A stretch of 64,000 nt of DNA from Spirochaetota bacterium (GTDB lineage Bacteria; Spirochaetota; UBA4802; UBA5550): the NCBI GenBank assembly GCA_035403545.1, contig DAONFJ010000002.1:14867-78866 (forward strand), written 5' to 3'. A program made the translations under genes and the position numbers. A model generated the notes under the pieces. That model did not search any database, was not told the DNA's origin, and worked only from the letters and a program-made list of their open reading frames with translations. This document shows positions 9,277 to 37,490 of the stretch, in pieces. Position 1 is the stretch's first letter. Each line of letters starts with the position of its first letter.

Positions 9277-10320
9277 ATGAAAACCATCGTAATCAAATAC
9301 TCAGCGATAATACTTGCACTTATCTCGGCTGCCTTATTCGGAATAACTACTCCTGTAAACAAATTTCTGCTCAATGATATTAATCCTTTTTTTCTTGCCG
9401 GACTTCTATATCTTGGCGCGTCAACAGGATTATTACCCGTAATACTTGTGAGAGGCGAGTTCCCTCATCTGCTTAACCTGAACCGCAGTAATAAAATAAG
9501 ACTATCAGGTTCTATAGTACTGGGCGGTATTCTGGGCCCGATATTAATTTTATCCGGACTGAAGTTTGCCTCAGCTTCTTCTGTTTCATTGTGGCTCAAC
9601 CTTGAACTGGCGGCAACAACTGTTTTGGGATTTCTATTTTTCAAAGATTTTTTAGGGATTAAAGGATGGCTTGGCGTAATGCTTGCCCTGGTTTCAGGAT
9701 TGATACTTACCGTGAACGAAGGCCATTCTGGAATTATCTCTGCGGTACTTGTCGGCTCAGCATGCGTATGCTGGGGATTTGATAATCATTTCACCGCACT
9801 CATCGACGGAATTTCAGCAGTTCAGAGTACGTTTATTAAGGGATTATTCGCGGGAACTCTTAATACTTTTGCCGGATATTATTTTTCTGACAGGTTAATT
9901 TCTGCGGAATTTATATTCTATGCGCTTCTTCTCGGGAGTGTATCTTACGGTATAAGTATTGTTTTATATATAATTTCAGCACAGAAGCTTGGTGCAATCA
10001 GAAGCCAGATAATTTTTTCCAGCGCTCCGTTTTTCGGAGTATTCTTTTCCATGATATTTTTATCGGAAAGCATAAGCCAACTGCAGATCGTTTCATTTTC
10101 ACTATTTGTTTTTTCAATAATACTTTTTATGTTTGAAAAACATGAGCATTATCATCACCACCATGAGGTTGAGCATACTCATTTTCACAGGCATGACGAT
10201 ATGCACCATGAACATCATCATGATAAAAAAATTTCATATCATGAACATCTTCATAAACATGAGAACGAAGAACATGCGCATCCCCACTGGCCGGATATGC
10301 ATCACAGGCATAAACATTAG
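9277..10320 (+). CDS. EamA/DMT-family transporter with a 61-residue histidine-rich C-terminal tail
   Basis: About ten hydrophobic helices in two EamA-like halves. The tail EKHEHYHHHHEVEHTHFHRHDDMHHEHHHDKK...HHRHKH (nt 10135-10317) holds 26 His. The start is ambiguous (TTG 9220, ATG 9253, ATG 9277) and none has a clear SD. Confidence 0.7.
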   Translation: MKTIVIKYSAIILALISAALFGITTPVNKFLLNDINPFFLAGLLYLGASTGLLPVILVRGEFPHLLNLNRSNKIRLSGSIVLGGILGPILILSGLKFASASSVSLWLNLELAATTVLGFLFFKDFLGIKGWLGVMLALVSGLILTVNEGHSGIISAVLVGSACVCWGFDNHFTALIDGISAVQSTFIKGLFAGTLNTFAGYYFSDRLISAEFIFYALLLGSVSYGISIVLYIISAQKLGAIRSQIIFSSAPFFGVFFSMIFLSESISQLQIVSFSLFVFSIILFMFEKHEHYHHHHEVEHTHFHRHDDMHHEHHHDKKISYHEHLHKHENEEHAHPHWPDMHHRHKH

Positions 10321-10360
10321 GGAGTCCCTGCAGAGCCTATTAAGGTTACGCAATAATAAA

Positions 10361-11707
10361 ATGAAAATAACTCTGATAAATCCGCCTATAGAAGATTTTT
10401 ATGTTACCGGGATACGGCGTCAGCCCCTTGGGCTTCTTTATATTGCCGCAGCATTGAAAGCTGCAGGATACAATCCTTCTCTGCTGAACTGTCACAGCGG
10501 AAAAAAAAGTATCATGGAACTTCCGCCGCAGTTCAGCTATCTTGAAACTTATATTAACAGTCCTGATCCCAAACTCCGGTTTCCCTATAAAAATTATGCT
10601 CACTACGGAATGAGCTGGCAGGAGATTGACAGGCAGATTAAAAATTCTCCGGCTGAAATATACTTCATATCATCGCTATTTACTACATACTATATGGAGA
10701 CAGAGCGGGTGATTGAGATAATACGGAAACACGCTAAGAGCGCTTACATTGCAGTCGGCGGTTACCATGCGTCGCTCTATCCTGAATATTATCTTAATGA
10801 TACAGGTGCCGATTTTGTAATCTGCGGTGAAGGGGAGATCCCGTCACTTGAACTTCTCCGCGCAATTGAAAACGGAACAGATCTTCAGTCAGTACCGGGC
10901 CTTGTTTACCGCAGTAATGGTGAAATAAAAAAAAATATACATCTGTCAAAGCCGGATGTTTCTCTCTTACCTTATCCGGCGCGAGAGTTACTTATTGAGA
11001 GAGATTTTAAAGCATACAAAAAATTTTTTGTCTCTATGCTGACTTCAAGGGGATGTCCTAACCGCTGTACATTCTGTACGGGGAAAATTATCTGGGGTGA
11101 CGGACGGCGGGAACGGGCGGCTGAAGACGTGATGAATGAAATCTCGGAGTGCATAACAAAGTTTGGAGCAGGAATAATTAATTTTGAGGATGACAACATT
11201 TTTCCTACAAAAAAACGGGCACATGAATTTTTAGAACTGCTGATCAGAGCGAGAAAGAAAAATGGAATCTCTCCCGAATTTACTGCGATGAATGGAATCT
11301 CGCTGGAAAAAGTTGATGAAGAAATTATCTCACTTATGAAACAGGCCGGATTTGTTGAACTGAACATATCTCTGGTAACGCATTCTGAAGATATACAAAA
11401 GAGCGAGAGAAGGCCTTTCAGCTCTGCAAAGTTTAAAAGTATCGCGGAATCGGCGCGCCGTCACGGCATGAACGTCAGAGGATACTTTATCCTCGGACTT
11501 CCGGGACAGAGTTCAGCCGAGATAAACGAAACTATTTCCTTTCTGAAAAGCAATGACTTAAAAGTATTCCCTTCGGTGTACTATAATATCTATTCGCCGA
11601 AGGACCAGTGGAAGATGCAGAGATCGTCTGCTTTCTATAATGAGAGCGGACTGCTCAGCCGTGATGATCTTTTCCGGAGTTTTAATAAATGTTTCTCTCC
11701 GTATTAA
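10361..11707 (+). CDS. B12-binding-domain radical SAM protein
   Basis: N-terminal MKITLINPP...LGLLYIAAALKAAGY (cobalamin-binding-domain-like) and CPNRCTFC = CX3CX2C (11054-11077). The ORF-track start at 10133 is a spurious extension across the His-tail region. Confidence 0.8.
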   Translation: MKITLINPPIEDFYVTGIRRQPLGLLYIAAALKAAGYNPSLLNCHSGKKSIMELPPQFSYLETYINSPDPKLRFPYKNYAHYGMSWQEIDRQIKNSPAEIYFISSLFTTYYMETERVIEIIRKHAKSAYIAVGGYHASLYPEYYLNDTGADFVICGEGEIPSLELLRAIENGTDLQSVPGLVYRSNGEIKKNIHLSKPDVSLLPYPARELLIERDFKAYKKFFVSMLTSRGCPNRCTFCTGKIIWGDGRRERAAEDVMNEISECITKFGAGIINFEDDNIFPTKKRAHEFLELLIRARKKNGISPEFTAMNGISLEKVDEEIISLMKQAGFVELNISLVTHSEDIQKSERRPFSSAKFKSIAESARRHGMNVRGYFILGLPGQSSAEINETISFLKSNDLKVFPSVYYNIYSPKDQWKMQRSSAFYNESGLLSRDDLFRSFNKCFSPY

Positions 11708-11798
11708 TAAAATTCTGTTGCTTTTTTGATTACATCTGCTTAAATTAAAAGATAAATATTTTTATTTTCTGAATTTTATTCCGTTGAAAGGATTATAA

Positions 11799-12587
11799 AT
11801 GATTCAGCTGAAAAGGGAGAAATCCCGTTTAAAAAAGAAATTAACTCTTTATTTTATCCTGATCGCGATTGTTTCAATTTCAGTCAGCATTGAAATGATA
11901 TTTGAATTCAGTTCTGCAAAATTCAGGAATGACATCCGGAATAATGTAATGACTGAAGTTCAGAATGGAATACCTGAAGCATATATTAAAAGAGTTAATG
12001 TTGAAAAAATCAATAGTGTAATTAATGATCCCATCATTGACCTGAGAAACAGAATGGTACTTCTCCTCCTTGTGGTGTTTGCAAGTATTATCGGTGCCTT
12101 CATCATGTTTGCGAAAGACATCGTCTCTCCTATGGACGGTATAGTTGAGGCGACCAAAAAGATTGTGGATGGAGATCTTACGGTAACTGTTCCGGTAATG
12201 TCCGATGATGAAATAGGGCAGATTGCAACGCTCATAAATGATATGAACATCAATCTGAATAATATGATCATGGAAATCAGGCAGGAAGTATCAAAGTATA
12301 AAAGCAAGATTCAGCAGGCTGCAGATGCCATCGCTTCTATCTCACAAAAAAATGCCGTGACAATAATTGAAAACAGGGCAATGAAAGTTTCGGATTTTAA
12401 AAAGATGATGAAACTCAGCGCTGATGTAGTGAAGCTCCTTAATATGATGCTCATAGATCTTGGCGCGCTTGAAACTTTTGTTAAAATGTATAAAACCTAT
12501 GCTATACATACAGAAATTAATCAGAGAGAACTCGACAAGGTGCTTGATCAGTACGATATAAAGTTAAGTTCCGAGGAAAATGAATAA
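11799..12587 (+). CDS. Two-TM membrane protein with a HAMP domain and coiled-coil tail, no recognisable output domain
   Basis: HAMP signature PMDGIVEATKKIVDGDLTVTVPVMSDDEIGQIATLINDMN after the second TM segment. SD AAGGA upstream. Confidence 0.65.
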   Translation: MIQLKREKSRLKKKLTLYFILIAIVSISVSIEMIFEFSSAKFRNDIRNNVMTEVQNGIPEAYIKRVNVEKINSVINDPIIDLRNRMVLLLLVVFASIIGAFIMFAKDIVSPMDGIVEATKKIVDGDLTVTVPVMSDDEIGQIATLINDMNINLNNMIMEIRQEVSKYKSKIQQAADAIASISQKNAVTIIENRAMKVSDFKKMMKLSADVVKLLNMMLIDLGALETFVKMYKTYAIHTEINQRELDKVLDQYDIKLSSEENE

Positions 12588-31770: not shown

Positions 31771-33603
31771 TTAATTTAAATCAATATATTCAGGCCTGCC
31801 GAAATAATATCCCTGGCAGAAATGAATATTATTGTTCAGAGCAACCTGGTGCATCTCCCTGCTTTCGATATACTCAGCTACAATTTTTTTCCCCGCTTTA
31901 TGGCAGTAATCAGCTATGCTTTCTATCATGCTTAATGCATTGATATCTGACACTACTGATTTCATGAGCATGCCGTCTATCTTGACAATGTCTATTGAAA
32001 GATTAAGCAGCGTTGAAAAATTTGAAAAACCTGAACCGAAATCATCTATCGCCACCAGGCAGCCGAGTTCCTGCACGGTCTTTATGAATTTGCGGGACAG
32101 GTCAATTTCGACCAGCTCTTCACTCTCCAGTATTTCTATAATAAGATTTCCCTTCTGCTGCCTGATAATTTCGCATATCCTGATAACCTCCTCCATAAAA
32201 CCGGGATGTATGATATCGCCCAGAGTAATGTTGATCGAAACATCATTGCCTGTTTTCATGATGAAACTGCATGCGTTCCTGAGGACAAATCTTGTCAGCT
32301 GATTGTATAGTCCTGTATTTTTTGCAACAGGGAGATAGTCCAATACAGATTCATAAGCCCCTTTTTTTGTACGCACTCTTAATAGGGCCTCATACCAGAC
32401 TGTCTCACCTGTAACAGTATCAACAACCGGCTGATATACTGTTCTCAAAAAATCATTCCGGATGTTATCCAGAATCGTTGAATACAGTTCGGAAGATTTT
32501 CGAATATGTACCCTGTCATCATACATCTCATTATAAATATAAATATTGTGCAGCAGTTTATCAGCCATGCTGAGTGCAATATCAGCCCTTGATAAAGCAT
32601 CGGCTGTGTAATCAGCATGAATTTTTGCCGCGCCGATTCTGTAAGCAGGACAGAATTCCTGGTCTCTTTCAATCAGTTTTATCGACTGCAGCTCAAACCA
32701 CAACACATTCAGGAAATTCTCGACGTTCTGGCCAGATAAAATTTGAGAATCTTCCCTGATTAACAGTCCAAATTCATGCCCCAGGAGTTTAAAGCAGCTA
32801 TACCCGTCGCGCTGAGCTATTCCGCTGAGGGTCTTTGCAACAAACAGAAGAATTTTTTCGGCAATTTCATAACCAAAAAGAGATGAGAGTTCACTGAAAT
32901 TCTGTATACGTACAATTACGAGAACAAATCCTTTATTTACAGGGAAACTTTTAATCATTGTTTCTTTATTCGGGAGCCTGGTAGCTGCATCAAAAATAAG
33001 ATTTTTAATAAGGTTACTTAGATGTTTTTCGTTCTGCATCTGCCCTGAGAATAATAAAATAAAGATAATTATAATTGCCATTGCAACCATGAGCAGATGG
33101 TATTCCGGAAAAACAAGATTCCATGGAACAGCGGAGGAAAAAAAAGAAAGTATGAACGCAAGTGAAACAGATAGAAAAAAAAGGAGCGACCATACCGCTC
33201 CTTTTACAAGCCCTGCCAGCTGAAAAGCAAATGGCGCAAATACAATCATGATAAAAATACTAACCTGCCTGCTTTTGGGAAGGTAAGCTGCAAGAAAGAA
33301 TCCTGCAAATGCTATGCCGATAGTCAGGGACACTATTATCCTCGATGACCTGGAATAAAAAATGAATATAAAGACAGAAATAAGAATAACTAAAGGAATA
33401 ACATAATTCAGTATGTATCCTGTCTCACCATCTGCTAAATCAGAAAAAAGAAATACAGCTGGTATTGCTGCCGCAAAAAAATATGAAATTATGAGCAGCC
33501 GCCGGTTACTCTGAAAAATATCTGAAGCAAGCTTGATATACCATTCTGATTTTTTGTAATCATATTCTTCAGGCAGCTTAGATAAAAATATCTTATTAAG
33601 CAT
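31771..33603 (-). CDS. Membrane sensor with a degenerate GGDEF domain and an intact EAL phosphodiesterase domain
   Basis: About 7 N-terminal TM segments. LGHEF replaces GG(D/E)EF. EAL set intact: YEALLRV, EILESE, DDFGSGFSN, KIDG, AEYIES, QGYYFGRP. Confidence 0.85.
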   Translation of the reverse strand: MLNKIFLSKLPEEYDYKKSEWYIKLASDIFQSNRRLLIISYFFAAAIPAVFLFSDLADGETGYILNYVIPLVILISVFIFIFYSRSSRIIVSLTIGIAFAGFFLAAYLPKSRQVSIFIMIVFAPFAFQLAGLVKGAVWSLLFFLSVSLAFILSFFSSAVPWNLVFPEYHLLMVAMAIIIIFILLFSGQMQNEKHLSNLIKNLIFDAATRLPNKETMIKSFPVNKGFVLVIVRIQNFSELSSLFGYEIAEKILLFVAKTLSGIAQRDGYSCFKLLGHEFGLLIREDSQILSGQNVENFLNVLWFELQSIKLIERDQEFCPAYRIGAAKIHADYTADALSRADIALSMADKLLHNIYIYNEMYDDRVHIRKSSELYSTILDNIRNDFLRTVYQPVVDTVTGETVWYEALLRVRTKKGAYESVLDYLPVAKNTGLYNQLTRFVLRNACSFIMKTGNDVSINITLGDIIHPGFMEEVIRICEIIRQQKGNLIIEILESEELVEIDLSRKFIKTVQELGCLVAIDDFGSGFSNFSTLLNLSIDIVKIDGMLMKSVVSDINALSMIESIADYCHKAGKKIVAEYIESREMHQVALNNNIHFCQGYYFGRPEYIDLN

Positions 33604-33751: not shown

Positions 33752-33968
33752 TGGGTAAAAAAAGAGAGAAGAAGAAATATAATAATTTATTTCTTCCGGC
33801 AGATCCGGGGGCATAAATAATTTTTTAAAATATCCTGTTAGCATTAACCGGTCTTATATTGCTTGACATTCCTGCCGGTATATAAGTTTTTTAAAATAGT
33901 TTTTATAATATTAATAGACGATAGAAAAGAGTGATGGAATATATAAAAAAAATTTCAGGAACAGATTG

Positions 33969-34694
33969 ATGAGCGGAACTTCATGCATAAAACTTTTAAT
34001 CTGTATCAGCCTGCTGTTAGCGGTTTCATGTACAACTGTAAGTATCTCTCCTGATGTAAATGTAAATGAACATTTAAAAGCAGAAAACAGGATAATGAAG
34101 AAAACTCTTACTCTTGTGGTGAGAGAGAACAGCGTATTAAAAGATGAGAACATTCAGTATAAGAGTGAGAACAGCGGCCTGAAAACCAGGAACAAACTGC
34201 TCGTATCGGAAATGGAATCTCTGAAAAAAAAGCATGAGCAGGATGTCGCTCTCCTCAATGAAAAATATGAGAACCTGAATAAAAAAAATATTATCCTGGA
34301 GCAGGAGAGTTCTTTAAAAATACAGGAACTCAACGCTATGAACAAAGCCCTGGAAGAGAAAATGACAGGTGAGATGACAAAGCTCAATGAGAATATCAGA
34401 AAGCAGGAGGAGACGTTCAATAAAGAACGTGCTTCAATAGAGACAGCTTTTTCCGCAAAAGAACTGGAATATCAGAAACAGATTGCACAGCTGAAAAATG
34501 ATAAAATCACGGTCAATATGGAACTTGAATCAATTAAGACCAGGCTCGCAGAATCCGATACAAATCTTAAATCTGTAAAGGACGACCTTCAGAGAAAGGA
34601 AGCTTTTATCAAGGAACAGAATGAGAAAATCAATTCCATGAACAGCACTGTTAATAAGAATGATTCAGCGGAAATAAAAACCGTGGCTCCGTGA
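33969..34694 (+). CDS. Coiled-coil lipoprotein
   Basis: Lipobox LLAVSC. The rest is heptad-like and E/K/N/L-rich. Its stop TGA overlaps the next gene's GTGATG start region. Confidence 0.7.
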   Translation: MSGTSCIKLLICISLLLAVSCTTVSISPDVNVNEHLKAENRIMKKTLTLVVRENSVLKDENIQYKSENSGLKTRNKLLVSEMESLKKKHEQDVALLNEKYENLNKKNIILEQESSLKIQELNAMNKALEEKMTGEMTKLNENIRKQEETFNKERASIETAFSAKELEYQKQIAQLKNDKITVNMELESIKTRLAESDTNLKSVKDDLQRKEAFIKEQNEKINSMNSTVNKNDSAEIKTVAP

Positions 34695-36847
34695 TGCGTC
34701 ATCAACCCGATATTTTAAACAACAGATCAAAACGCCTTCTGTTAGTAATAATTTTTTTTTCAACAGCATTACAGCTGTTTCTATTCTCTCCGCTTTATGC
34801 AGAGACAAAGTTTACACTGCTCCTTACATCAAATCTTCAGGGACGGTTTTCAACTGAAAAAGAAAATCAGGATGATACAGACCCCATGCTTCTTCTTGCG
34901 CAGTCCATTATAAAAGAAAGGAATAAATCCGGTTTTGACCTCTATCTGGACCTTGGGAATGCTTTTTATCCGGGCACACTTTCAAGATACAGTTACGGTT
35001 CAATAATGATGGATTTTTTCAGTTACTTTAAATGTGAGGCTACACTGGTTTCCTCCAGGGATATCAGCATAGGGCTCTCCAACCTTGAATTTCTTTCTCA
35101 GGGAAAAACAACAAAGATGCTTTCCGCGAACATTACAAAGGACAACCAGCCGGTGTTCACTCCTTATACTGTGATAAAACATTCAGGAAAAAAGATAGGG
35201 ATTATCGGAGTCTCATCATCGGATGGGCTTATTGATATAGCAGATAAAAGGATTCTTAATATTTCTTTCAGTGAGTATCGCGAGTCGATTAAAGAGAAAG
35301 CGGAAATATTGAAAAAAGAGGGATGTGACAATCTCATACTTCTTTCAGGGCTTTCGTACAGAAATAACCTGGAGCTTATGAGGGATATACCTGAAGTAAA
35401 TCTCATAATAAGCGGAGGTGATTCCACCGGAAGCCTTTTCTCAATTCCATCCTCACGGGTTGATCTTCAGTGGGGGAGATCTATTATTACGTTATTGCAG
35501 AACGACGGATATTACAGGCTTGACCTGGCACTGGGGGATGGGATCAGCGTTACAGCTTTGAATTTCAGCAAGCCGTCCAGATATGCAACGTCAGATCCGG
35601 AATATGATGAATTTACTAACAGGCTTTCTATCTGGAAAGATAATTATAAAGAGGAGAATTATCTTATAGCGGAGAATGTACCCGCATCAGTGATTACAGA
35701 TGAAACAGCGGCCAATATGCTGAGGCACAGGCATAGAAGTGAAATCGGTATTATTGAAAAATATTCCATACTTACACAAAAGTTATCCGGACCTCTTTAT
35801 TACTCGGCATTGATGACGCTTGTAAATGATGACTATCCTGTATTCAAATACCGGTTAACGGGAGCAGACCTGAAAAAAATTGAGGAGAGCGGCAGTGATC
35901 TTGTTATTACAGGCCTGGATAAAGGGAGGGTGCAGAGTTACCCTGTGGCGGACAAACAGACGTACAGTATATGTTCCACTCAATTTGCTTACGACAGGAT
36001 ATCAAGAATTCTCAGAAAACATGTTGAATACAGCAATACATGGAACACACTGCAGGATGAGATAGAAGACGACATGAAAACTGAGATGAATCTGACATCC
36101 GGCAACTTTGATTATCTTGAAGACAGGTTCAGAATACTTGTCGACATATCACTCTCCGGATTTTATGACAAATCGGTAATTGAGAGGGATGACAACATTG
36201 AAACCCCGCCCGGCCAGCCTGAAGAATCATACCTGCGGTGGGGGATGGAAGGTACGGCAAATCTGACAATATATAACAGGGACCATCAGCTGAAATTTAC
36301 ACCATACGTATATTATATAAAACAGGATGATGAGTACCTGCAGAATCTTCTCAGGGGAACCTTGCTGTATACCTACAGCCCAAACAGTTATGTAAGGCCT
36401 TACCACAAATCCCAGATCGATACAATTCTTGTCGAAGTTGAAGGAAGGCCTGTGCTCGCAAGGGAGACAGTCGGCGTATCTCTTTACACGGAAAGGGTGT
36501 CCGGTAAAATCGGTACAGGTTTTGAGAAACAGATTCAGGATCCCGAAACTCCCGGAGTCTACGGTATTGAAGCATTACTCGACGCCAGCCTGCCGTTAAC
36601 TGATGTAATGACATATACATTTAAACTCGACTCATTCATATCGCGCACGCGTAACAGCAGCAGTTCTGTTGAACTTGAAGCCCGGACTGAAATATCCAAC
36701 GCTCTTTCGTATAAGATTAACAGTATGCTTGGAGTATCGATGAGATACAAATGGTTTCGTCTTTACGCCAGTGATCCGCGGGAATCCTATAAATATTCCC
36801 AGACGCTTCTCTCTGTTGATCTTAATACAGATTTTAAATTATTTTAA
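34691..36847 (+). CDS. Secreted 5'-nucleotidase/metallophosphatase-fold protein with degenerate catalytic motifs and an outer-membrane-type C-terminal region
   Basis: Signal peptide. The order of blocks matches UshA-like enzymes but the residues are replaced (TSNLQG, LGNAFYPG, SSRDISIG, LLSGLS, ISGGDST). The C-terminal 250 aa have alternating patterns and end in ..DFKLF (terminal Phe). Confidence 0.6.
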   Translation: MMRHQPDILNNRSKRLLLVIIFFSTALQLFLFSPLYAETKFTLLLTSNLQGRFSTEKENQDDTDPMLLLAQSIIKERNKSGFDLYLDLGNAFYPGTLSRYSYGSIMMDFFSYFKCEATLVSSRDISIGLSNLEFLSQGKTTKMLSANITKDNQPVFTPYTVIKHSGKKIGIIGVSSSDGLIDIADKRILNISFSEYRESIKEKAEILKKEGCDNLILLSGLSYRNNLELMRDIPEVNLIISGGDSTGSLFSIPSSRVDLQWGRSIITLLQNDGYYRLDLALGDGISVTALNFSKPSRYATSDPEYDEFTNRLSIWKDNYKEENYLIAENVPASVITDETAANMLRHRHRSEIGIIEKYSILTQKLSGPLYYSALMTLVNDDYPVFKYRLTGADLKKIEESGSDLVITGLDKGRVQSYPVADKQTYSICSTQFAYDRISRILRKHVEYSNTWNTLQDEIEDDMKTEMNLTSGNFDYLEDRFRILVDISLSGFYDKSVIERDDNIETPPGQPEESYLRWGMEGTANLTIYNRDHQLKFTPYVYYIKQDDEYLQNLLRGTLLYTYSPNSYVRPYHKSQIDTILVEVEGRPVLARETVGVSLYTERVSGKIGTGFEKQIQDPETPGVYGIEALLDASLPLTDVMTYTFKLDSFISRTRNSSSSVELEARTEISNALSYKINSMLGVSMRYKWFRLYASDPRESYKYSQTLLSVDLNTDFKLF

Positions 36848-36986: not shown

Positions 36987-37490
36987 ATGAAAAGTGTAAT
37001 CATTGATACATCATCAGCAATATTAATGTATAAGTGCCATACTATTCCGGCACTGCTGAAGTACTGCTCTCCGGTCATCTCCAGCGCGGTGAAGGCGGAA
37101 CTTATAGTTCCCGGATATGAAGGATGGGAATTTTTTACAGAGCTATGCAGAAATAGCATGATAAAAGTTCTTGAACTTGAAACAGAAAAGGCTGATGAAT
37201 TGGCCGGCTCACTTCATATCGGCGAGCGTAGTGCCATAGCTCTGTACTATGAAGGTAAAGGTGATTTTATCATCATGGATGACGGAAAGGGGAGTGCTTT
37301 CTGCAGAGATAATAAAATACCGTATATCAATGCGCTCCTTGCAGTAAAAATTCTTTTTTTTAAACGGCTTGTAACTGAAACTGAATTTGATAATGCCCGG
37401 AGATGGATGATTGCAAACGGCAGGTATTCTAAAAAAGTAATAGAATGGGCTGAAAATGCTGATGAAAATTTACTCTCGGCATTCATTTAG
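36987..37490 (+). CDS. PIN-like DUF3368-family protein
   Basis: MKSVIIDTSSAI N-terminus and HIGERSAIALYYEGKGDFIIMDDGKG block (compare GEAEAIALA...lliDD). Confidence 0.55.
   Translation: MKSVIIDTSSAILMYKCHTIPALLKYCSPVISSAVKAELIVPGYEGWEFFTELCRNSMIKVLELETEKADELAGSLHIGERSAIALYYEGKGDFIIMDDGKGSAFCRDNKIPYINALLAVKILFFKRLVTETEFDNARRWMIANGRYSKKVIEWAENADENLLSAFI

Follow-up and report, generated by a model that had tools for sequence, protein, structure and literature searches.

Within a 64,000-nucleotide stretch of a Spirochaetota bacterium genome (GenBank assembly GCA_035403545.1, contig DAONFJ010000002.1, positions 14,867 to 78,866; here called the window), we analyzed two overlapping genes that encode a 241-amino-acid (aa) lipoprotein and a 718-aa protein in which a 5'-nucleotidase fold stripped of its metal ligands is joined to a C-terminal outer-membrane β-barrel. 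We consider it probable, if well short of certain, that the two genes form a self-contained outer-membrane module, with the large protein acting as a non-catalytic binding or scaffold platform whose body lies in the periplasm in complex with the rod-like lipoprotein. Structure prediction, sequence analysis, and genome comparison document the fold, the ligand loss, the barrel, the lipoprotein features, the gene pairing, and the co-transfer of both genes between phyla; from these we infer the periplasmic orientation, the physical complex, and the non-enzymatic role in binding, as a scaffold, or as a strut.

The 718-aa protein is a true 5'-nucleotidase homolog, although its relationship is weak and distant at the sequence level. 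A preliminary description, made from the DNA letters, had recognized the block order of UshA and other 5'-nucleotidases, and this relationship is supported by sequence, profile, and structure comparisons alike. A phmmer search against PDB retrieved the Thermus 5'-nucleotidase 2z1a (E = 4e-11, aa 83 to 254), and a family profile matched NadN, snake-venom 5'-nucleotidase, SoxB, CD73, and UshA. The best NCBIfam match was UshA_like_PCGU (E = 2e-20; 72.8 bits versus a cutoff of 275). In Pfam, 5_nucleotid_C (PF02872) matched aa 338 to 399 below its threshold (16.9 bits versus a cutoff of 23.6) and was matched by 25 of 35 family members, and Metallophos (PF00149) gave no match in the 718-aa protein. 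The full-length AlphaFold2 model, built from a 35-sequence alignment (mean predicted local distance difference test score [pLDDT], 84.9; predicted template modeling score [pTM], 0.69), contains the complete two-domain UshA/5'-nucleotidase fold at aa 39 to 463. Foldseek aligned this model with UshA, CD73, NadN, and 2z1a in PDB at E values of 1e-18 to 9e-23 over about 500 columns, that is, over both domains (2z1a, E = 8.8e-23 over 502 columns). The signal-peptide region is modeled as a helix at residues 10 to 30 followed by a low-confidence stretch, and all aligned homologs carry equivalent N-termini.

Despite this intact fold, the seven metal ligands and the catalytic His-Asp dyad of UshA are replaced (Table 1). 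Motifs were placed by HMMER alignment to 2z1a and by hhalign alignment to Escherichia coli UshA, and aligned columns were counted in 103 distinct family members. Against 2z1a, LDAGD is replaced by LDLGN, GNHEFD by SSRDIS, LSH by LSG, and GGHSH by GGDST; against E. coli UshA, TNDHHG is replaced by TSNLQG. These replacements sit where the preliminary description had put them, and the ligand loss that it proposed is confirmed by the alignments. The canonical ligand set is retained by 0 of the 103 members, none of which has a histidine ligand or the His-Asp dyad, and a search for intact DxH, GD, GNHE, H, and GH motifs at any offset found none among them. A canonical enzyme with shifted motifs is thereby ruled out, as HMMER, profile, and hhalign alignments agree on the blocks and no histidines lie nearby. 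Since all His and Asp ligands and the His-Asp pair are gone, the body is predicted to be incapable of the two-metal phosphoester hydrolysis of the family. Weaker matches to a profile of the barrel define two further subfamilies (B and C) with the same layout, and these also lack the catalytic motifs.

Table 1. Residues of the window protein at the metal-ligand and catalytic positions of UshA, with their conservation in the family
UshA residue	Role	Window residue	Family
D41	metal ligand	N48	N in 103/103
H43	metal ligand	Q50	mainly Q/E/N
D84	metal ligand	N90	N in 103/103
N116	metal ligand	S122	S/A/T
H217	metal ligand	G220	G in 100/103
H252	metal ligand	D244	D in 103/103
Q254	metal ligand	T246	T/S/A and others
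H117	catalytic dyad	R123	mainly K/R/Q/N/M/A
D120	catalytic dyad	S126	mainly N/Q/R/S/H

Because several of the replacement residues (N48, N90, and D244) are themselves invariant, the old active site looks repurposed rather than decayed. D87, G89, N90, Y93, P94, G95, D124, G242, G243, and D244 are invariant in the family (the first six each in 103 of 103 members), as are S98, S101, G103, and D108 in alignment A1. The most conserved segment of the protein is a loop derived from motif II (family form, DLGNAFYPGxLS(K/R)(Y/F)SYGS), which is kept in the distant subfamilies B and C and part of which is flexible, with pLDDT below 50 at aa 96 to 99. One way to account for such conservation is a new enzyme, in which a His-free site (N48, D87, N90, D124, D244, and S121/S122) coordinates Ca2+ or Mg2+ or works on an envelope substrate by a Ser/Asp mechanism. 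Replacements that are invariant in 103 of 103 members at ligand positions, oxygen donors of the type found in hard-cation sites, and the fact that purifying selection on the protein is strongest in the former active-site region would all fit that proposal, which we nevertheless consider quite improbable: no member keeps the histidine ligands or the catalytic dyad, the glycine at the position of H217 is unable to ligate metal, and strict conservation is equally expected of a binding site. We know of no precedent for His-free catalysis in the 5'-nucleotidase family. We favor a non-catalytic role, in which the former active-site pocket, judging from its conserved residues, may now bind a ligand or a partner.

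The body is followed by 12 β-strands at aa 481 to 717 of the full-length model, and a separate AlphaFold2 model of aa 462 to 718 contains identical strands (pLDDT, 86.4; pTM, 0.78). The barrel suspected in the preliminary description from aa ~470 onward is thus predicted confidently and begins about 10 residues later, at aa 481. The terminal aromatic signature of outer-membrane proteins, also pointed out there, extends to the family, as 93 of 103 members end in F, W, or Y. The signal peptide, the even-stranded antiparallel barrel, and the C-terminal aromatic residue are together the features of an outer-membrane substrate of the β-barrel assembly machinery (BAM). At probability 1.0, Foldseek returned only outer-membrane barrels for this part (Legionella porin, OmpG, DcaP, FadL, PcoB, and FapF). 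The template modeling (TM) scores were modest, at 0.3 to 0.65 (PcoB, 0.52/0.65; OmpG, ~0.46; FapF, 0.43), and we therefore regard the barrel as generic and outside the solved families. Pfam gave no match to the barrel at E ≤ 1, and the sole barrel matches among 35 members were weak and limited to one member each (DUF481, 0.0048; OMP_b-brl, 0.051). A barrel-only profile searched against 1.84 billion representative proteins yielded 75 matches (clusters at 50% identity), all of them 700- to 760-aa proteins or fragments of such proteins. With no stand-alone relative in that collection, the barrel is restricted to the nucleotidase-barrel architecture.

Barrel turns of 3 to 5 residues alternate with longer loops, and nearly all family indels fall in loops 1-2, 3-4, 5-6, 9-10, and 11-12. 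As variable loops usually face the extracellular side and barrel termini the periplasm, and as the linker between body and barrel is short, the nucleotidase-like body is most likely periplasmic in the modeled topology. This linker of about 17 residues is conserved (DYxYLDRRFR, with Y475, L476, R479, and R481 among the conserved residues of the region) and is modeled at a pLDDT of ~90 with a single 4-residue helix at aa 474 to 477. The structure had been described as surface exposed or periplasm spanning; loop topology and the short linker tilt this choice toward the periplasmic side. Surface display would require the barrel to export the body in the manner of an autotransporter, as with the globular passenger of EstA, and the body to form an adhesin or fibril with a surface lipoprotein. 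An N-terminal passenger followed by a C-terminal barrel would suit this scheme, 12 strands is the autotransporter number, and spirochaetes export many lipoproteins to the surface. We consider it very unlikely all the same, given that the models contain no pore-spanning or long pore helix beyond the 4-residue helix of the linker, that Pfam Autotransporter (PF03797) gives no match at E ≤ 1, that no autotransporter barrel is among the top 50 fold matches, and that the extracellular loops are short. Further, the module appears to work after its move into Desulfobacterales, which argues against a need for lineage-specific export of surface lipoproteins.

Charged residues are conserved at alternate positions within the barrel strands (E520, R555, K573, R591/E592, E612/K613, E627, D647, R665, D710, and K716), a pattern that could also be read as the lining of an uptake or export channel with a periplasmic cap, that is, a 12-strand pore like Tsx, NanC/KdgM, PcoB, or FapF. 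The dead nucleotidase would then trap or gate a phosphorylated or nucleoside-like solute without hydrolyzing it, and the lipoprotein would regulate it or link it to inner-membrane partners. Consistent with a channel, the best TM-scores are to channel-forming barrels of 12 to 14 strands (PcoB, OmpG, and FapF), and PhoU and a PhoR/PhoB-like pair are neighbors of subfamily B, while a PhoU fragment adjoins one Desulfobacter locus. However, no PhoU or transporter gene recurs in 80 subfamily-A loci, no inner-membrane partner is encoded nearby, and Tsx is not in the top 50 fold matches. Nor are there evident equivalents of the residues with which the C-terminal domain of UshA binds nucleotides, the substrate-binding Arg triad and the base-stacking Phe pair (R375, R379, R410, F429, and F498), hhalign setting L, D, and Q opposite the last three and leaving R375 and R379 unpartnered in a region of low-confidence alignment. 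We therefore consider a channel unlikely and retain the binding or scaffold platform as our preferred interpretation.

The second component of this platform, the partner lipoprotein, carries a lipobox (LAVSC) of the loose spirochaetal type. Its cysteine, C22, is invariant in a 20-sequence alignment (A3), and a hydrophobic stretch followed by Cys occurs in nearly all 69 members of the lipoprotein family. A tether of ~15 to 25 residues separates the lipid anchor from a conserved head with the consensus (L/I)xAENxxMKKxLxLxxRENxVLKxEN, in which R53, N55, E61, and N62 do not vary and E40 and E54 hardly vary (A3). The head motif is found in the Desulfobacterales copies too. Beyond the head runs a rod of ~170 residues, 32 to 46% charged across the family. 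The 175-residue core of the window copy (aa 35 to 209) contains no Pro and two Gly, and the family alignment shows few indels, one of which is a 7-residue insertion, i.e., a single heptad. Profile matches of the lipoprotein are to coiled-coil families and chains alone, and searches of Pfam, NCBIfam, and PDB for a known family yielded coiled-coil noise alone. The rod is therefore a probable coiled coil. The preliminary description had called the lipoprotein almost entirely coiled coil; the proline-free, charged rod and the coiled-coil-only matches agree with this, but heptad periodicity is weak, for which reason we use the label helical rod, probable coiled coil.

The two genes are consistently paired. 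All 12 of the relatives' loci have the lipoprotein gene as the next gene upstream, in the same orientation, and it is likewise upstream in Desulfobacter and Desulfosarcina contigs. Among related genomes, 27 of 41 carry the lipoprotein, which adjoins the barrel gene with the sole exception of G037, in which the two matches are on separate contigs, and it occurs in none of the 11 related genomes that lack the barrel gene. We also collected 80 loci from GTDB species representatives, 79 of which had enough upstream sequence to score pairing; the lipoprotein gene is directly upstream in 77 of the 79, the junctions are mostly 4-nucleotide (nt) or 1-nt overlaps, and no other neighboring gene family recurs in more than 8 of the 80 loci. 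The two exceptions are locus L051 and locus L022, a second paralogue in one genome. The latter (L022:2995-5190) shares its genome with L016; the two copies depend on a single lipoprotein, or else the paralogue works alone.

Pairing extends across two phyla, as shown by the phylogenetic distribution that the preliminary description had proposed to examine: the pair is frequent among uncultured Leptospirales and occurs sporadically among Desulfobacterales. The barrel was found in 37 of 301 Spirochaetota genomes sampled evenly (35 in the window's own order and 2 subfamily-B-like copies in another family) and in 9 of 201 Desulfobacterales genomes. Maximum-likelihood phylogeny groups the Desulfobacterales copies into two or more well-supported clades that fall inside the diversity of the spirochaete copies, and the phylum label changes several times, requiring at least two transfers between phyla. 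Because the lipoprotein and barrel genes travel together in both phyla, the pair appears to be an autonomous transferable unit, which therefore moves and works as a unit relying on universal export machinery only. One of the nine Desulfobacterales carriers is in culture, Desulfosarcina variabilis str. Montpellier (NZ_CP159846.1; the barrel gene is near 2.755 Mb), and localization, complex formation, periplasm geometry, and ligand binding are thus directly testable.

The more distant subfamilies vary in what accompanies the barrel gene. Subfamily C carries DLGNTFYPGYLSRFSYGS; one of its loci, L097, has an upstream lipoprotein with a RENKVL version of the head motif, and in another, L100, an uncharacterized 258-aa gene overlaps the barrel gene start. 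Subfamily B carries DLGDNYLPGAIGNFSSG, is found in another spirochaete lineage, and has no adjacent lipoprotein. This subfamily is rarer and more divergent, with only two homologs in a collection of 5.8 billion proteins, and its loci (L098:4001-6190 and L099:3001-5172, encoding P0179 and P0181) are flanked by Memo/AMMECR1 on one side and PhoU on the other; in L099, a PhoR/PhoB-like two-component pair adjoins PhoU. In an uncultured Desulfobacter (L013:6557-6997 and 10176-12308), a truncated PhoU-like gene immediately precedes the lipoprotein gene and a two-component system of the OmpR type lies downstream, an arrangement unrepeated in the 80 other subfamily-A loci, from which PhoU is absent. 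We rejected a link to the phosphate regulon on this distribution and regard it as a weak lead only.

In the model that we propose, the two genes would be translationally coupled and the large protein exported by Sec, after which BAM would insert the 12-strand barrel into the outer membrane. The 425-residue nucleotidase-fold body would hang from the periplasmic end of strand 1 on the short, rigid linker, with the former active-site region serving as a ligand- or partner-binding site. The lipoprotein would be anchored in the same membrane through its N-terminal Cys, placing its head helix level with the body. Both conserved elements would then lie within a few nanometers of the inner leaflet of the outer membrane, and for this reason we propose that the head probably docks on the body or on the barrel rim. 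From there the ~170-residue rod would project some 20 to 25 nm into or across the periplasm; a straight helix of 170 residues measures ~25 nm, comparable to the width of the periplasm, which suggests a strut, a ruler, or a trans-periplasmic link.

Several observations weigh against this model. A crude test of heptad periodicity in the rod was weak (z = -0.1 for the window copy and -1.2 to 4.4 across the family), and the orientation of the body is deduced solely from loop lengths. The conserved charges inside the barrel could mean a channel, more than an anchor, and the former metal site, with its invariant Asn and Asp residues, could yet accommodate a hard cation and sustain some chemistry. 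In addition, the paralogue L022, locus L051, and the distant subfamily B have no adjacent lipoprotein gene, so the large protein can exist without an adjoining partner gene. A more specific version of the model, which we offer as a speculative and rather doubtful extension, would have the pseudo-nucleotidase under its own barrel hold the head of a ~25-nm periplasm-spanning lipoprotein; the pair would then be an envelope device of a type not recognized before, either a laterally transferable strut or ruler or else a trans-periplasmic sensor whose His-free Asp/Asn pocket reads a cation or a phosphorylated envelope ligand.

The large protein shares with the UshA family (E. coli UshA, Thermus 2Z1A, human CD73, NadN, and SoxB) the metallophosphatase and 5_nucleotid_C domains, the motif order, and a secreted or periplasmic location. 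It differs in the replacement of the seven metal ligands and the His-Asp dyad, in scores below all curated thresholds, and in having a C-terminal outer-membrane barrel and a lipoprotein neighbor, neither of which is known in that family. A published census of ushA-like genes scored Leptospirales negative (PMC10454023). No curated family in Pfam, NCBIfam, or PADLOC claims either protein at threshold, and we found no description of the family in the full-text literature, in keeping with the earlier remark that no described system was known to have this arrangement. An enzyme fold put to another use has a parallel in Vps29 of retromer and the B subunits of DNA polymerases alpha, delta, and epsilon, in which the calcineurin-like phosphoesterase fold has lost its metal ligands and become a protein-binding scaffold. 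These are eukaryotic or archaeal, cytosolic, single-domain proteins, whereas the window protein belongs to the bacterial envelope and the 5'-nucleotidase branch and is fused to a barrel.

FapF, the amyloid secretion channel of Pseudomonas, and PcoB are small outer-membrane barrels of ~12 strands, and FapF also has a periplasmic coiled coil. Our barrel-only model resembles both (TM-scores of 0.43 to 0.65) but shows no detectable sequence relationship to them, and in FapF the coiled coil is in the same chain and is not accompanied by an enzyme-like domain. Outer-membrane proteins that pair with lipoproteins, as well as envelope struts, are exemplified by OmpA/Pal/Lpp, LptD-LptE, and LpoA/LpoB. 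The combination of a barrel bearing a periplasmic domain with an outer-membrane lipoprotein, and of a helical lipoprotein extending into the periplasm, recalls these systems, to which there is no homology. Unlike Lpp, which is a short trimeric coiled coil, the lipoprotein has a rod about three times longer and a variable tail with no conserved C-terminal Lys for attachment to peptidoglycan; the sole similarity to Lpp is a noise-level coiled-coil match (E = 0.045). Pfam detected no OmpA-like or LysM peptidoglycan-binding domain.

If the model is correct, the module would be a case from the bacterial envelope in which an enzyme fold has been converted to structural or binding use, of which we found none described. 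The pair is also a compact outer-membrane unit of two genes, and at least two transfers have carried it between Spirochaetota and Desulfobacterota. The invariant replacements at the old metal site also pose a sharp and testable question, namely, what the pocket now binds. Practical impact is likely to be modest unless a function emerges, since the hosts are environmental anaerobes and the family, with 75 clusters at 50% identity, is small.

The features of the locus are listed in Table 2. Both open reading frames are present as first described, with the start of the fusion gene overlapping the TGA of the lipoprotein gene within GTGATG, by 4 nt from GTG 34691 or by 1 nt from ATG 34694. An in-frame TTG at 33966 is an alternative start for the lipoprotein, and AGGAA, resembling a ribosome-binding site, lies 8 nt upstream of its ATG at 33969. 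The public protein collection contains a product identical to the 717-aa form of the large protein (P0001). Both genes are conserved in more than 100 genomes and thus cannot be chance open reading frames.

Table 2. Features of the lipoprotein and pseudo-5'-nucleotidase/barrel genes in window coordinates
Feature	Position	Strand	Basis or detail
Partner lipoprotein gene	33969..34694	+	241 aa from ATG 33969; stop TGA 34692-34694; open reading frame list
Lipoprotein signal peptide, lipobox-like LAVSC	33969..34031	+	acylated Cys C22 (TTG numbering) at 34029-34031
Conserved head motif LKAENRIMKKTLTLVVRENSVLKDEN	34074..34151	+	15-40 residues past lipid anchor
Proline-free helical rod (probable coiled coil)	34152..34640	+	low Pro/Gly, charge, coiled-coil-only matches
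Variable low-complexity Lys/Pro-rich lipoprotein tail	to 34691	+	
Pseudo-5'-nucleotidase/barrel fusion gene	34691..36847	+	718 aa from GTG 34691; 717 aa from ATG 34694
Sec-type signal peptide, aa 1-37 (ending SPLYA, followed by ETK)	34691..34801	+	basic n-region and hydrophobic core
N-terminal metallophosphatase-like domain	34805..35590	+	HMMER, PDB profile, hhalign, column counts, Foldseek (E 9e-23)
Motif-II-derived hallmark loop DLGNAFYPGTLSRYSYGSIMMDFF	34949..35020	+	most conserved stretch of protein
5'-Nucleotidase C-terminal (substrate-binding)-like domain	35597..36079	+	weak Pfam 5_nucleotid_C match; Foldseek spanning both domains
Conserved linker (ending DYLEDRFR)	36080..36130	+	joins nucleotidase-like part to barrel strand 1
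12-stranded outer-membrane β-barrel ending TDFKLF, plus stop codon	36131..36847	+	AlphaFold2 strands; Foldseek

Promoter-like sites in the locus occur at the level expected by chance, and a terminator scan found seven short terminator-like hairpins versus 2.2 expected, six of the seven within the two coding regions. On the minus strand at 31771-33603, separated from the pair by a spacer of ~360 bp and divergent from it, a gene encodes a polytopic membrane protein with seven transmembrane segments, a degenerate GGDEF domain, and an EAL domain. At 36987-37490, 140 nt downstream of the barrel gene, is a PIN-like (DUF3368-type) gene. A functional tie to either flanking gene was rejected, as neither adjoins the homologs of the pair in other genomes, and so was an anti-phage defense module, for which PADLOC gave coiled-coil noise only.

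Genomes of relatives also hold open reading frames of ~310 to 346 aa with ~25% identity to aa 4 to 300 of the large protein (G033:C15:23175-24047, G017:C53:8452-9240, G028:C4:98924-99589, G021:C184:2078-2905, and G037:C39:16542-17234). These are stand-alone proteins whose similarity is to the metallophosphatase-like domain only.

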